Both the position numbers and the translations under genes were made by a program. From the NCBI GenBank assembly GCA_050012475.1, contig JBEKHC010000017.1:1-61879 (forward strand): 61,879 bases of DNA, read 5' to 3'. Under the pieces are notes generated by a model, which did no database searches, was not told where the DNA came from, and saw nothing but the letters and a program-made list of their open reading frames with translations. The stretch is from Candidatus Velthaea sp. (GTDB lineage: Bacteria; Vulcanimicrobiota; Vulcanimicrobiia; Vulcanimicrobiales; Vulcanimicrobiaceae). Below, in pieces: positions 4,180 through 57,592 of this stretch; the stretch's first letter is position 1; every line of letters begins with the position of its first letter.

Positions 4180-4377
4180 ATCGAAGTCGGCTCGAGATCG
4201 CCGCCGCGCTGGCGGCGTGCAACTGACATGCATCTGGTGTCGCGATCGCGGATGGCGGCCTAGGCCGCAGTGCCCGCAGTCGCTCACGAAAAGCCCGCCT
4301 TTCGCGCGGTACGCGGCAAGGTATCAAGCGCGAGCGAGGAAGTGAGCGGAAACTCGCGCAAAAAGGACTTCATCGCA

Positions 4378-5406
4378 ATGCGACCTTCGTTCAAGCTTGC
4401 ATTTCTGCTCGGTTTCGCGTTCATCGCCGCTTCCGCGGTTCACTCGACCAACGGCGCAGCTGCCGGTGCGCCCGTCGCGGACGGGAAAGCAATCTTCGAG
4501 GCAAACTGCGCGGGTTGCCATCAGACGACGGGCCAGGGCGGCGGCCCGTTTCCGCCGTTGGCCGGGAACGCCGACGTTACCGGAGCCGACACGTCGGCGC
4601 TGCTTTCCACGGTCCTCAATGGCCGCAGCGGACCGATCGTCACCAACGGGAAGACCTACGGCGGCGTGATGCCGGCTTGGAAAGGGACGCTTTCCAACGC
4701 CCAGGTCGCGGCCGTGGTCAGCTACATTCGAACGGCCTGGGGCAACAATGCCGCGATCGTCACCGAGGAGCAGGTCGCCGAAGCGAGCGCGCCCACCGGA
4801 TTGAGCGGCCAGCAAATCTTCGTGGCGAAGTGCGCGACCTGTCATCAGGCGCACGGCCAAGGCACCGACAGCATTCCGCCGTTAGCGGGGAACCCGGCCG
4901 TCGCCGCGAGCGACCCTAAGGACATGATCGCAACGATCGTGAACGGCCGCAGCGGCCCGCTTATGGTGAACGGTAAGACGTATAACGGGAAGATGCCGAC
5001 GTGGAGCGGTCGGCTCTCCAACGCCGACATCGCCGCGGTCGCTACCTACGTTCGCTCGGCCTGGGGCGATAGCGCTTCGGGCGTGACCGAACAACAAGTG
5101 GCGGCGGCCGGGCCCGGGGTGTCCGCCGCGGTCGGTGCCTCGATTTTCACCTTCAAATGCGCCCGCTGCCATCAGGCGAACGGAGCCGGCCGCGATACGA
5201 TCCCCGCACTGGCCGGCAACAAGAACGTCCTCGCCGCGGATCCGAACGGTATCATCACCACGGTGGAAGACGGCCGCAACCTGATGCCTTCGTGGAAAGG
5301 TCAGCTCACGTCCGCCGACATCGCAGCGGTTCTCACGTACGTCCGCTCCGCGTGGGGCAACAGCGCCGCGCCGGTTACCGAAGAGCGGGTGGCAGCCGTG
5401 AAATAA
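4378..5406 (+). CDS. Periplasmic triheme cytochrome c (three tandem class I c-type domains)
   Basis: Signal peptide; CAGCH, CATCH and CARCH, each followed by P(P/A)LAGN...MP(A/T/S)W and (S/T)Y(I/V)R(T/S)AWG; start moved to ATG 4378 after AAGGA. Confidence 0.9.
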   Translation: MRPSFKLAFLLGFAFIAASAVHSTNGAAAGAPVADGKAIFEANCAGCHQTTGQGGGPFPPLAGNADVTGADTSALLSTVLNGRSGPIVTNGKTYGGVMPAWKGTLSNAQVAAVVSYIRTAWGNNAAIVTEEQVAEASAPTGLSGQQIFVAKCATCHQAHGQGTDSIPPLAGNPAVAASDPKDMIATIVNGRSGPLMVNGKTYNGKMPTWSGRLSNADIAAVATYVRSAWGDSASGVTEQQVAAAGPGVSAAVGASIFTFKCARCHQANGAGRDTIPALAGNKNVLAADPNGIITTVEDGRNLMPSWKGQLTSADIAAVLTYVRSAWGNSAAPVTEERVAAVK

Positions 5407-53821: not shown

Positions 53822-54385
53822 TCAGGAAGCAAGCTCGTTGGCGAAGAGCGTTGCGATCAGGTCGCTCATCGCCGGATCGATCGCGCGCAAGCGCGCGCGA
53901 GTGGCGCGTGGCCAGAGCGATTGCGGATCGTTCGCCTCGACCCACGCGCGCATCGCCTCGGCGAAATATTCGTCGAGCCCCGAAGCAGCGTACGGCGTGA
54001 CGAACGCCGTCGCTTGCTCGAAAGCACGGCGAATGCGCGGATCGACTCCGCTGAGATAGACGCCGCCGCCCAACGCACAATCGAGCGCATGGGCGAATTC
54101 GTGCGCGACGGTCATCGGGCTGAACGAGCGTAAATACATCGTTCGCTCTTCGACGACGAACAAGCCGGCCGGCGGAATCGGCCAGTCGTCGACGCCGGCT
54201 GCCAGACGCCGCAGCGCGCGCGATCGATCGCGGTACCCGTCTTTGCGGCGCAACGCGACGATCCGGATACCGGCATCGCTTGCGACTCGCCGCGCCCCGG
54301 CGCCAAAGCGCTGCAATGTCGTCTCGATCGCGGATCGAATCAAAGGATCGTCGCTGCAGATCGGCGGAGCGCAAGCATCGGGCAC
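53822..54385 (-). CDS. Zinc metallopeptidase, anthrax-lethal-factor/PPEP/MtfA-like fold
   Basis: VAHEFAHALD plus YAA...EYFAEA, LRAIDP. Confidence 0.7.
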   Translation of the reverse strand: MPDACAPPICSDDPLIRSAIETTLQRFGAGARRVASDAGIRIVALRRKDGYRDRSRALRRLAAGVDDWPIPPAGLFVVEERTMYLRSFSPMTVAHEFAHALDCALGGGVYLSGVDPRIRRAFEQATAFVTPYAASGLDEYFAEAMRAWVEANDPQSLWPRATRARLRAIDPAMSDLIATLFANELAS

Positions 54386-54408: not shown

Positions 54409-54969
54409 TTAGGCCGGCATTATGCGCGTATGACCGTTTCGTGCTCGACGTTCAAATGGCTGGGGTCGGTTTGGCTGCGACGGAGGCGTTTGGGCTGCGC
54501 AGATGTCGCTGCGCCGCAGCAGGTGATGCTCGATTCGAGTGACGAGCTCCCGCGCATCGACCGGCTTCGTTATGAAGTCTTGCACGCCGGTCTCGAATGC
54601 GAAGAGGCGATCCTCGTCGAGGGCGTGCGTTGAAAGCATGACGATCGGAATAGCCCGCGTCGCGCTGTCGCTTTTGAGTACTTCAACCGCCTGACAACCG
54701 TCCATGACGGGCATCATCCAATCCAAGACGATGACATCGGGACGCTGCGCTCGCGCCGCCGCGCAGGCCAACGCTCCGTTCTCGAAGGCGTGCACGATGA
54801 ACGATGCGCGCGTTAGGATGCGGCACAGCAGCATGCGCGTGGCGGGGTCATCTTCGGCGATTACAATGGTGGCGCGCGGGCGAACGGCGGCGTCGGATGT
54901 CGTCCGCGAAACGGCCGTTGTTTCGTTGCAGTCCGTGCTGTCGGCGCAGCGCTCGATCGTTCTTTTCAT
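54409..54969 (-). CDS. Single-domain response regulator
   Basis: IAEDD, VLDWMMPVMDG, IVMLS, FITKP. Confidence 0.85.
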   Translation of the reverse strand: MKRTIERCADSTDCNETTAVSRTTSDAAVRPRATIVIAEDDPATRMLLCRILTRASFIVHAFENGALACAAARAQRPDVIVLDWMMPVMDGCQAVEVLKSDSATRAIPIVMLSTHALDEDRLFAFETGVQDFITKPVDARELVTRIEHHLLRRSDICAAQTPPSQPNRPQPFERRARNGHTRIMPA

Positions 54970-55352
54970 GGGGCGCCCTCAACTCGACTGCGAACGCTCT
55001 GCGCCCGGCGGGAACGCTGCGCGCCGCCGGCGGCACGTCACGAGAAACAGCCCAACTCTATCATGCGTGCCGGTCAAGCTCATAGAGCGCCCCCGCGGCT
55101 CAAACGCAAGCTTTACGCGAAGCACGGCGGTGTAGTGCTTTGCGCTGCCGGACCGGCTCTTGACCCCGCGGGGACCCTCGTCGCTCGATTTCGGCCCGAG
55201 GCGCGTTGCGTTCGTGCGAAGAAAGCTTCGTAAAGCGTTCTTATGGATGACGTACGTTGCGCGCACTTGCCTTGGAGGAGAGAGGTTTGATCTTTTCGTT
55301 TTGGGCCCGATTTTCGTGGAACGCACTCCTTGCCGAGTTGACGACGGCTTAG

Positions 55353-56570
55353 ATGGCTCGTCAGAAATACGTTCTCGGCGCGCTCGGGGTCGCAGCTGCA
55401 GGGCTGCTCGTCGCTGGTCTGTTCGCCAAGCCGACGCAGTCCGTGGCGATGCCGACGTTCGCGCAGGCCTATGGGCTGCCGTGCAGCGCCTGCCACACGC
55501 AGGTCCCGCTGCTCAACGCGAACGGCCGCTACATCCAGCGAACGGGCTATGCATCGCTCGACCGGACGGTGCTCGCGCGTGCGCTGCCCGTCTGGATCGA
55601 CGCCAGCACGAATTACGACTCATCCGGAGGCACCAACGTGCCGCTCGGGCCGGGGCAGCCCAACGTTCCGAAATACGAGTTCGGCAACTTGGCCATCCAC
55701 GGCGTCGGTTACATCGCGCCGGATCTGACATTTCACGCCCAGCAGTGGATCGAATCGGGCGGCGACTCCGGTCCGCTGGACACGCTTTGGGTAACCTACA
55801 ACCACATCTTCCATAACGACGGACATCTGTTTTTCGGGAAGATCCTCAACCCCGCGCCTTCGCCGTACAGCCAAGATTTCGAGCTCGACGGCGCGACCGC
55901 TTCGAGCACGGTCGTGGGCGACCACGATTGGAGCGCAACGTACGATAACCGCTGGGGCACGCGGTTCGCCTACATTCGCAAAGCGCTCGACGTCGAGGCG
56001 GGCTACTATCTTTCGGGCGACGACCTCAACGGGATCACCGATTTCAACCCCGGCGACAAGACGTTTCAATGGAAACTCGCCTACGCGCAACCGAACTCCC
56101 CGCTCGAATTCGGCACCTTTGGCAGCAACGGAGCGATTCCGCTCACCAGCGGCCCCGGGACCGACATCTATCATTCGATTGCCGGTTACGTGCAGCTCGA
56201 TCCGTCACGCTATGGCCGGCCCGGCCTCTTCGCGGTTTATCAAAGTGCACGGGACGGAAATCCGGGCTTCGACGGCAACGGAAATCCGCTGGGTGTGGCC
56301 TCGAGCAAAGGGCTGAGCGTCGCGATCTTCGAGCATATCCTGCGCAACAGCGCGACCGTTGGGTTTCGCCACGACCTCAACGACGACGGACTCGGCACCG
56401 TCAGCAACGGCAACTCCATCAACCTTGCGTTCAATGTGCCGCATTTCAGTTACGCGCACATCTTCCTCGAGGCCAATACCGGGTCGAATTCCGCGCTCGC
56501 GGGCGGATCCAACGGGCCGACTTGGAAGGGCATGTTCTGGTTGACCGTGCCGATCAAAGCCGTCCATTGA
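55353..56570 (+). CDS. Cyc2-like monoheme cytochrome c / outer-membrane beta-barrel fusion
   Basis: Signal peptide, AMPTFAQAYGLPCSACHTQVPLLNANGRYIQRTGY, then alternating aromatic/Gly beta-strand sequence to the C-terminus. Confidence 0.8.
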   Translation: MARQKYVLGALGVAAAGLLVAGLFAKPTQSVAMPTFAQAYGLPCSACHTQVPLLNANGRYIQRTGYASLDRTVLARALPVWIDASTNYDSSGGTNVPLGPGQPNVPKYEFGNLAIHGVGYIAPDLTFHAQQWIESGGDSGPLDTLWVTYNHIFHNDGHLFFGKILNPAPSPYSQDFELDGATASSTVVGDHDWSATYDNRWGTRFAYIRKALDVEAGYYLSGDDLNGITDFNPGDKTFQWKLAYAQPNSPLEFGTFGSNGAIPLTSGPGTDIYHSIAGYVQLDPSRYGRPGLFAVYQSARDGNPGFDGNGNPLGVASSKGLSVAIFEHILRNSATVGFRHDLNDDGLGTVSNGNSINLAFNVPHFSYAHIFLEANTGSNSALAGGSNGPTWKGMFWLTVPIKAVH

Positions 56571-56620: not shown

Positions 56621-57592
56621 ATGACGAAACCCGGCTCCGCCGCACCACTGCAGCGCGTCCTCGTCGCGCTTGACGGCTCCGATACGTCCCACGGTGCCCT
56701 GCTGCTCGCGATCGAGCTGAGTCGTCAATATAAGAGCGAGCTGATCTTGTGCACGGTCGTCGACCGCGACGCCGTGATCGTCGCGGCGCAGTCGCCCGAC
56801 GGGCCGTTCATGGGCTTCGACAATATCGTCGAGCATTACGAGACGGCGGCGCGGCTGTTGTTGACCGAAGCAGCGGCGCGCACTTCGGCGGCCGGCGCGC
56901 CGACGACCACGATGCTGCTCGACGGCCGGCCCGCCGTCGCGATCGCCGATTACGCCAAGGAGGCCGGGGTCGACGCGATCGTGATGGGGACGCACGGGAA
57001 GAGTGGCCTGGAACGGATGTTCCTCGGCAGCACCGCGGAAGGCGTCCTGCACTTGACGACTGTTCCGACGTTCGTCGTGCATCAGACGGGTGACGCGAGC
57101 TTCGCTCCCGCGGCGCTGCCGACGGTTCCCGAGTTCGGGCGCATCCTTGTTGCCGTCGACGATTCCGATCCGTCCGATGCCGCGATCGCTTTCGCACTCG
57201 ACCTCGCCGCGGCAACCCAAAGCCGCGTGTTGTGCTGCAACGCGATCGAACAGGGTCAGTTTTTCGACAAGGCCGCCCGTTACGGCTACAATCCTGGTCC
57301 GCTGCTCGCCGATCTGCGCGGGCATGCATCCGCGCTCATCGAAGAGAAAACGCGGGCGGCAAAGGAACGCGGGCTCACGGTGATCAGCATCATCGTGGAA
57401 GGCAACGCGCCGGACGCCATCCTCAAGGCCGCCGCCGACAACGACGCGGACCTCATCGTCGTCGGGACGCACGGGCGGCGCGGTCTCCAGCGGCTGTTCA
57501 TCGGCAGCGTCGCCGAAAGCATCATCCGCCACAGCGTTCTGCCGGTTGCGGTCGTTCGCGCCGTTGCGGTGCGCTCTGCCCAGCTGTACTGA
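56621..57592 (+). CDS. Tandem universal stress protein
   Basis: Two USP domains: VALDGS...IVMGTHG...LGSTAE and VAVDDS...VGTHG...IGSVAE. Confidence 0.9.
   Translation: MTKPGSAAPLQRVLVALDGSDTSHGALLLAIELSRQYKSELILCTVVDRDAVIVAAQSPDGPFMGFDNIVEHYETAARLLLTEAAARTSAAGAPTTTMLLDGRPAVAIADYAKEAGVDAIVMGTHGKSGLERMFLGSTAEGVLHLTTVPTFVVHQTGDASFAPAALPTVPEFGRILVAVDDSDPSDAAIAFALDLAAATQSRVLCCNAIEQGQFFDKAARYGYNPGPLLADLRGHASALIEEKTRAAKERGLTVISIIVEGNAPDAILKAAADNDADLIVVGTHGRRGLQRLFIGSVAESIIRHSVLPVAVVRAVAVRSAQLY

Follow-up and report, generated by a model that had tools for sequence, protein, structure and literature searches.

We found that a fused cytochrome-porin of a Vulcanimicrobiota (Eremiobacterota) soil bacterium very probably serves as a redox relay, with electron transfer at the periplasmic face, and on balance we favour an inward conduit that would carry electrons from an outside reductant through periplasmic carriers to oxygen respiration. 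A redox relay is strongly argued for by the adjacency and repeated fusion of the gene to three interchangeable one-electron carriers, and inward flow to O2 is favoured by the high-potential types of these carriers and by the oxidases nearby. What is new is the adjacency or fusion of at least one carrier in 73/79 related loci, the proximity of an oxidase in 18/79, and an upstream repeat that ties the gene to a Usp/low-oxygen-type regulon; the first two of these observations support the electron-conduit role that the initial annotation had proposed. The gene lies in a window of 61,879 nucleotides (the whole stretch of DNA that was analysed) from a genome that is 93.8% complete and 5.3% contaminated, and the features discussed are collected in Table 1.

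Table 1. Features of the window and further Cyc2-like genes of the host genome (G000); positions without a contig handle are those of the window.
Feature	Position	Strand	Basis
Secreted triheme class I cytochrome c, candidate periplasmic partner, 50 kb from the porin gene	4342..5406	+	
Divergent stand-alone receiver-domain gene, not a conserved neighbour	54409..54969	-	
TTC-N8-TTC direct repeat of 11-bp period, upstream of the porin gene	55226..55243 (matrix site 55222-55247)	+	
Fused monoheme cytochrome c/16-strand porin gene	55353..56570	+	ORF, AlphaFold2 model, structure search
Predicted Sec signal peptide, residues 1-32, ending S-V-A	55353..55448	+	Ala -1 conservation, model helix 2-24
Cytochrome domain, residues 33-74, predicted mature N-terminus M33	55449..55574	+	Model, alignment
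CSACH haem motif	55482-55496	+	Sequence
Predicted 16-strand beta-barrel, residues 80-400	55590..56552	+	AlphaFold2, structure search, alignment
Tandem universal stress protein (Usp), 50 bases downstream of the porin gene	56621..57592	+	
Cyc2-like paralogue, separate family (L001/L002 pair), after plastocyanin-like gene, near SCO	G000:C204:4621-6059		
Cyc2-like paralogue, separate family (L001/L002 pair), after plastocyanin-like gene, near SCO	G000:C1:104841-107664		
Fourth Cyc2-like gene, cut by contig end	G000:C148:7089-7760		

Sequence, predicted fold and relation to Cyc2

The open reading frame starts with ATG and encodes 405 amino acids (P0001). Its translation contains a single CxxCH and exactly the motif string that the initial annotation had reported, namely AMPTFAQAY (residues 32-40), GLP, CSACH (44-48), TQV, PLL, GR (58-59) and GY (65-66), with the haem motif near the N-terminus. 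The gene has a GC3 of 0.79 compared to the genome median of 0.81, and its codon use matches that of the genome. The homologue search returned 281 homologues from 7997 scored candidates; the homologues listed, at least 120 of the 281, are 45-100% identical to the query, and the few named entries among the 120 are Eremiobacteraeota, Baltobacteraceae or Vulcanimicrobiaceae. In an alignment of 97 homologues, the CxxCH-x3-PxL spacing is kept in 97/97 and residues C44, C47, H48, P52, L54, G58, R59 and Y66 are invariant, which argues that the motif is not due to chance. RNA contigs without a differing letter overlie parts of the gene in 4/4 runs from two studies, the runs having been picked by the gene itself. 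Sequence searches of Pfam, NCBIfam and the PDB gave no match to the protein, and since ten canonical-type Cyc2 relatives also had no match in the same libraries, these libraries are unable to test Cyc2 membership. A protein cluster look-up returned no informative names.

The AlphaFold2 model, built from the 97-sequence alignment (mean pLDDT 89.1, pTM 0.86), has a leader helix at residues 2-24, CSACH set among short helices (34-74) and a run of 16 strands (80-400), which bears out the earlier description of porin-like beta-strand sequence. In an exhaustive structure search, OprP (2O4V) was the top match (Z 23.6, rmsd 3.6, 293 aligned), and the Foldseek matches are 16-strand porins including OprO and OprP (4RJX, 4RJW, 2O4V). 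Of the barrel with a heme plug that had been suggested as a check, the model returned a 16-strand barrel with a small haem domain, but it is itself haem-free, and for this reason we infer the location of the haem at the periplasmic mouth. Conserved barrel residues are H116, H128, H158, H191, D271, D283, D301, E215, E252 and E373, and the barrel histidines H116, H128, H158, H191 and H369 are invariant in the 97 homologues. The mature protein is acidic (31 D+E compared to 20 K+R). Keffer et al. (PMC8406198) described Cyc2PV-1 with 16 strands, using the OprO/OprP templates 4RJW and 2O4V, and the Cyc2 iron sites predicted by Jiang et al. are of the His/Asp type.

In the definition of Keffer et al. 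(PMC8406198), Cyc2 has AXPXFAR[Q/K][T/Y] and PXL around CXXCH, and their reference tree was filtered on that motif. The present protein has, by inspection, a predicted signal peptide (hydrophobic helix 2-24 and an A-x-A-type site), and it has a single N-terminal CxxCH, which is invariant in the 97 homologues, PxL four residues past it in 97/97, and a fused, predicted OprP/OprO-like barrel of 16 strands within a length above 365 aa. The strict motif fits 0/97 homologues compared to 77/118 of a canonical-type set, and the relaxed AxPxFAxx[T/Y] with canonical spacing fits 95/97. When the family was compared by HHalign with the canonical PxFARQT-type profile, the score was 98.6% (E 1.3e-15, 246 columns, query 18-277), the profile consisting of 118 proteins related to one canonical-motif match, with named members that are proteobacterial and none of them a characterised Cyc2. 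Compared by their barrels only, the family and the canonical set match weakly (E 0.024, probability 2%). The 62 rows of the family group as a long-branched clade (SH-aLRT 100) in a quick 94-row tree, a clade that is separate from the canonical set and from two paralogues of this genome; this tree has long-branch joins among distant rows, and its canonical-motif proteins are unnamed. Because the published defining motif is lacking, the protein is, by its sequence, a divergent Cyc2-like variant and not a strict Cyc2 member. The initial annotation had called it a divergent member of Cyc2, and the likeness stands by HHalign and fold, but strict membership does not; its placing of the host outside the classical iron oxidisers is supported. 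Keffer et al. (PMC8406198) warn that distant Cyc2 homologues may function otherwise, and Cyc2 homologues are present in Fe(III) reducers and in taxa without known extracellular electron transfer.

The alanine that opens the Cyc2 motif is the last residue (-1) of the predicted signal peptide. Alanine stands at -1 in 109/109 of the closest homologues with the pattern (119 examined), most of which have a small residue at -3, in 103/105 wider representatives (148 examined) and in 116/116 canonical-type proteins (120 examined), and the residue that follows is always Met in the close set and M, I, L, V, T, Y, H, Q or W more widely. Cleavage after this alanine would make the haem histidine mature residue 16, as in A. 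ferrooxidans Cyc2, where a 31-residue signal turns haem His47 into mature H16. By analogy with cytochrome f, we tentatively propose that signal peptidase cuts at the first alanine of the motif and that the freed N-terminal amine may be the sixth haem ligand; alternatively, Met33 could be a haem ligand in this clade. In cytochrome f, the N-terminal amine is the sixth haem ligand, and the fold differs from that of the cytochrome-porin and the spacer to CxxCH is longer. The sequence search gave no match to cytochrome f, and we take the likeness as a lead. Mature cytochrome f begins YPIFAQQNY (PMC2291561), so that both proteins start with x-P-x-F-A-Q right past the signal peptide and ahead of CxxCH, and its haem is described in print with an "Fe coordinating Tyr". 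Published Cyc2 models have one axial haem ligand, and EPR of a cluster 1 Cyc2 gave two axial ligands, read as His or Met ligation; this reading and the missing cytochrome f match argue against ligation by the amine. In the accessible parts of the literature examined, we found no proposal of N-terminal amine ligation for Cyc2.

Redox carriers, oxidases and the host genome

Neighbouring genes were surveyed with our own gene caller in 80 related loci with up to 8 kb of flank (41 of at least 16 kb); 67 loci are from Vulcanimicrobiota/Eremiobacterota, two from other phyla and 11 are labelled bacterium only. Neighbour counts refer to 79 loci, with L068 left out because the porin gene was not called there, and six of the 79 have no carrier. 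A small secreted cupredoxin lies directly upstream in 65/79 loci, often with overlapping start and stop codons, and downstream in six; a triheme cytochrome c is adjacent in 7/79, and the porin is fused to a C-terminal CuA domain in three and to a cytochrome c in one. Among the 29 loci of the closest orthologues (query excluded), a set that partly overlaps the 79, a partner was found in 27 (20 cupredoxin, five triheme, two fused) and two have none. A second cytochrome c is fused through an Ala/Pro/Ser/Thr-rich linker in 11 of the 120 homologues listed (281 in total), and cytochrome c fusions occur at several places in the quick tree, where the query is sister to cytochrome c-fused forms (SH-aLRT 96). 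L104, L118 and L119 are natural porin-CuA fusions, and the distant relatives P0166 and P0200 have two extra cytochrome c domains. The survey of related loci found no transporter or TonB gene as a conserved neighbour and no quinol-oxidising multiheme gene as a recurring one.

The cupredoxin keeps all five CuA side-chain ligands, His plus Cys-x3-Cys-x3-His-x2-Met, in 44/44 cases (72/73 by pattern), its best PDB matches are ba3 CuA domains (E 1e-16), and its model is all-beta (pLDDT 87.9) and without a membrane helix. Its ligand set and predicted cupredoxin fold are those of a soluble CuA protein, which the usual partner appears to be. In the 36 genomes common to both searches, a soluble CuA gene is always accompanied by the orthologue (24/24, or 21/21 without unpublished genomes), and 3/12 CuA-less genomes have the orthologue, this genome included. 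No soluble CuA gene was found in the host genome (93.8% complete), and a remnant of an upstream CuA gene at the locus was rejected, with none in three frames or in the genome. Haem-copper oxidase subunit I lies within 8 kb of the porin gene in 18/79 loci, 11 with the GHPLVY helix that the oxidase on contig C65 also has, three as fragments and four of a different type; we take GHPLVY oxidases, by motif and subunit II type, to be of the B family and ba3-like. At L084, L103, L115 and L117, a subunit I in which QFGHTFAN replaces the GHPxVY helix is found near the porin together with a subunit II and a membrane-bound cytochrome c, and these haem-copper superfamily proteins are possibly of the NO reductase type.

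As had been noted before, the porin gene has no oxidase gene beside it in the window; around it lie the divergent receiver-domain gene, genes for a GGDEF protein and a GntR regulator, and the two-domain Usp. Compared to the relatives with a carrier (73/79), this genome stands apart in having no redox gene next to the porin gene. A 187-aa protein in the window (53822-54385, minus strand) has a HEFAH metallopeptidase-like motif and no significant family match. The window triheme cytochrome is 59-80% identical to nine triheme genes of related loci, seven of them porin-adjacent, and two monoheme cytochromes, one at C2:97094 and a lipoprotein-like one at C49:1859, share 48-66% identity with domains fused in the nearest relatives of the query. 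Three further Cyc2-like genes are present on C204, C1 and C148; an OmpR-type two-component pair comes after the C1 paralogue, a PAP2-fold, possibly haloperoxidase-like gene comes before the C204 paralogue, and SCO chaperones flank both full-length paralogues and the ba3-type oxidase. The host encodes three CuA-type haem-copper oxidases (among them the ba3-like oxidase of C65), a fourth, partial member of the superfamily (C118), a bd oxidase, a Rieske/cytochrome b-c complex, System II CcsB, BamA, a NiFe hydrogenase and a form I CO dehydrogenase. Phototrophy genes are found on C88 (pufBA-like, pufL, pufM, a tetraheme pufC-like cytochrome and bch genes) and CO2-fixation genes on C67 (form I RuBisCO, RbcS, CbbX-like and PRK).

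At E 0.001, 230/301 genomes of the phylum match the profile, nearly all in the class of the query, with weak matches that include paralogues. Full-length-level orthologues (E 1e-100 or better) are present in 134/232 class genomes (58%), or 131/226 without six unpublished genomes, tallies in which related genomes are not independent and incomplete genomes may miss the gene. The class with orthologues is drawn largely from ordinary soils, not from an iron-habitat subset. Reaction-centre genes are present in 26/301 phylum genomes, and a link between the orthologue and phototrophy was rejected (12/26 reaction-centre genomes compared to 122/206 others). Phototrophs are 10 of the 14 top-scoring genomes for the orthologue, an enrichment due to kinship with the query, and 3/3 same-genus genomes carry reaction centres. 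Two or three reaction-centre gene sets each are present in G045, G126, G130 and G139.

Upstream repeat and neighbouring regulatory genes

The TTC-N8-TTC repeat is found upstream of the operon in 61/79 loci compared to 109/942 other upstream regions. With a matrix built without the host genome (62/78 loci, consensus CTTCnCAnnnnCTTCnC), the site at the cytochrome-porin gene comes 47th among 4758 called genes (shuffle p 0.0095). Repeat scores above 10 were obtained for 5/8 host Usp genes compared to 123/4758 genes, and further host genes share the repeat: the operon for a membrane-bound hydrogenase, a radical SAM gene resembling haem synthases, and a large gene that the beginning of its sequence marks as ferredoxin oxidoreductase-like. 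It ranks 67 before the C65 oxidase and scores 9.1 before the C2 cytochrome, is absent before the host's triheme and C49 cytochrome genes, and was not found before puf or rbc genes. In the relatives, the repeat is present in 31/95 leaders of recurring neighbour genes compared to 18/429 others, and in the related leaders it precedes 0/12 oxidase subunit II genes and 0/8 triheme genes. Since it is missing before those oxidase and cytochrome genes, co-regulation with the proposed sink is supported in part.

An 11-base period points to an OmpR-family regulator, which suggests that the repeat is a candidate site for one, and OmpR-family regulator genes are present in 24/80 related loci and, in the host, at C14:61021 and C65:20394. 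Genes for Usp occur in 19/80 loci, for phosphoketolase in 11/80 and for acetate kinase in 10/80, and 38/80 have at least one gene of the Usp/phosphoketolase/acetate kinase/pyridoxamine-oxidase-like set, oxidases included. We take these neighbours to resemble low-oxygen regulons; the repeat would thus link the cytochrome-porin with a Usp/low-oxygen-type regulon whose stimulus we infer. Co-transcription of the downstream Usp with the porin gene is possible, with no terminator-like site found between the two genes, and sigma-70 promoter and terminator scans at the porin gene detected nothing. Membership in the phosphate regulon was rejected, with pstS lacking the repeat (score 2.5), as was an FNR-type box (0/80 upstream regions). 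A multi-copy family of 150-aa proteins without annotation (L071:4451-4918; in G000 on C65, C14, C3, C26 and C109) occurs in 26/80 loci and has the same upstream repeat in 19/30 leaders. A repeat-rich island at G000:C14:26000-62000 holds hydrogenase, haem synthesis, radical SAM, Usp, phosphoketolase and OmpR-type regulator genes.

Proposed function, alternatives and known systems

We propose that the protein is an outer-membrane porin of 16 predicted strands whose periplasmic mouth would hold a single c-type haem, and that its export and haem attachment would depend on the encoded BamA and System II CcsB. A small reduced solute would enter the pore and give up electrons one at a time to the haem, and from there they would pass to periplasmic carriers, which would be the soluble CuA protein in most of the class and, in this CuA-less genome, the monoheme cytochromes on C2 or C49 or the window triheme cytochrome. 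The ba3-type or aa3/caa3-type oxidases would be the sink. The gene would be induced together with the Usp-containing low-oxygen-type regulon, and the route would be a supplementary energy source of a mixotroph, not obligate iron lithotrophy. Dissolved Fe(II), which just homology and the acidic, His-rich barrel favour, may be the most likely single donor, at prospects that we put clearly below even; reduced humic or quinone compounds rank next.

The same carriers might instead form an outward conduit at low oxygen, from the Rieske/cytochrome b complex to the haem and on to soluble Fe(III) or oxidised humics. The low-oxygen-type regulon keeps this direction alive, with a repeat common to Usp, hydrogenase operon, radical SAM and ferredoxin oxidoreductase-like genes and with phosphoketolase and acetate kinase as frequent neighbours (11 and 10 of 80), and Fe(III)-reducing taxa have Cyc2 homologues. 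We nevertheless consider outward flow unlikely: the partners, CuA proteins and class I cytochromes, belong to the high-potential carriers that serve the oxidase side, recurring neighbours include oxidases but no quinol-oxidising multiheme gene, and characterised Cyc2 proteins oxidise Fe(II). Less probable still is a metal-handling pore, in which the haem would alter the redox state of Cu or Fe for uptake, detoxification or copper-enzyme assembly and not for energy. Such a pore would agree with the five invariant barrel histidines, the copper-protein partners, the SCO genes flanking the paralogues and the ba3-type oxidase, and a near class-wide presence that suggests a housekeeping role; however, in several lineages copper-free cytochromes take the place of CuA or are fused in the way that it is, an interchange that fits an electron relay, and the conserved neighbours include neither a transporter nor a TonB gene.

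The phototrophy genes of the host (pufL, pufM, tetraheme pufC-like, form I RuBisCO, PRK) raise the question of photoferrotrophy, with the conduit feeding the tetraheme PufC and the type II reaction centre and with Fe(II) supporting CO2 fixation. The three CuA-less genomes with the orthologue are all reaction-centre positive, and the accessible description of a cultured relative leaves its photosynthetic donor unidentified and does not have Fe(II) among the donors listed as tested. That relative is, however, a strict aerobe without lithoautotrophic growth, the hydrogenase and the form I CO dehydrogenase of the host make H2 and CO alternative donors, and neither an association with reaction centres (12/26 compared to 122/206) nor a repeat before puf or rbc was found; we regard photoferrotrophy as improbable. 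An aerobic anoxygenic phototroph that would send Fe(II) electrons both to a low-oxygen oxidase and to the type II reaction centre, with CO2 fixation by RuBisCO, seems a similarly long shot. An ordinary solute porin, for example for phosphate, with a vestigial haem motif is hardly credible: OprP is the best structural match and Porin_O_P is found in 20% of the members of one Atlas cluster, but CxxCH is kept in 97/97, redox partners accompany the gene in 73/79 loci, pstS is without the repeat (score 2.5), and an acidic mature protein (31 D+E compared to 20 K+R) is unlike an anion channel.

Vulcanimicrobiota have a wide distribution in peat and in soils that are acidic, cold and poor in nutrients. 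Should over half of the main class draw electrons from Fe(II) or reduced humics through the proposed inward conduit, soil iron and organic-redox cycling would be far commoner than marker surveys show, the reference Cyc2 tree having been filtered on a motif that this family lacks. The repeated fusions name a probable electron acceptor, something that most Cyc2 proteins lack so far, and they offer a compact two-part assay system. The finding also bears on the electron donor of Vulcanimicrobiota phototrophs. The improbable supply of Fe(II) electrons to both oxidase and reaction centre would, if true, mean photoferrotrophy in a new phylum, in addition to a Cyc2 variant that is spread through the class and paired with a free-standing CuA protein.

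Earlier work described Cyc2-like genes of Eremiobacterota from acid mine drainage (PMC8357290, MAG 15) and, in Baltobacteraceae, from mine tailings (PMC13594681), in the same phylum and with the same suggested function, Fe(II) oxidation. In their accessible parts, these papers give presence only, with no partner, fusion, regulon or class-wide survey, and their genes may belong to any one of several paralogous families. A CuA partner, fusions, class-wide spread or photoferrotrophy in the phylum were not found in the titles and abstract starts of the literature, subscription papers lying outside. Background was also drawn from accessible parts of PMC13741234, PMC13692758, PMC9758169, PMC11194577, PMC12442345, PMC6344600, PMC7908018, PMC5526843 and two preprints.

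Like A. ferrooxidans Cyc2, Mariprofundus Cyc2PV-1, Ghiorsea Cyc2TAG1_1 and Leptospirillum Cyt572, the cytochrome-porin has a (predicted) signal peptide, one N-terminal CxxCH with PxL four residues after it and the same spacing from the AxPxFA motif, a haem histidine at the predicted mature position 16 and a predicted 16-strand OprP/OprO-like barrel. Unlike these proteins, it has FAQAY in place of FAR[Q/K][T/Y], it falls in a long-branch clade of its own with a barrel of weakly similar sequence, and C-terminal fusion to cytochrome c or CuA is frequent in its family. The rus operon of Acidithiobacillus (cyc2-cyc1-cup-coxBACD-rus; PMC10654088) likewise combines a cytochrome-porin with a periplasmic copper protein or cytochrome and a haem-copper oxidase. 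In contrast to that operon (PMC10654088), the family has a binuclear CuA-motif protein rather than rusticyanin or Cup and a ba3-type rather than an aa3 oxidase, the oxidase is near only 18/79 loci and often on the opposite strand, and in this genome the genes are dispersed, with carrier and oxidase genes outside the operon of the cyc2-like gene.
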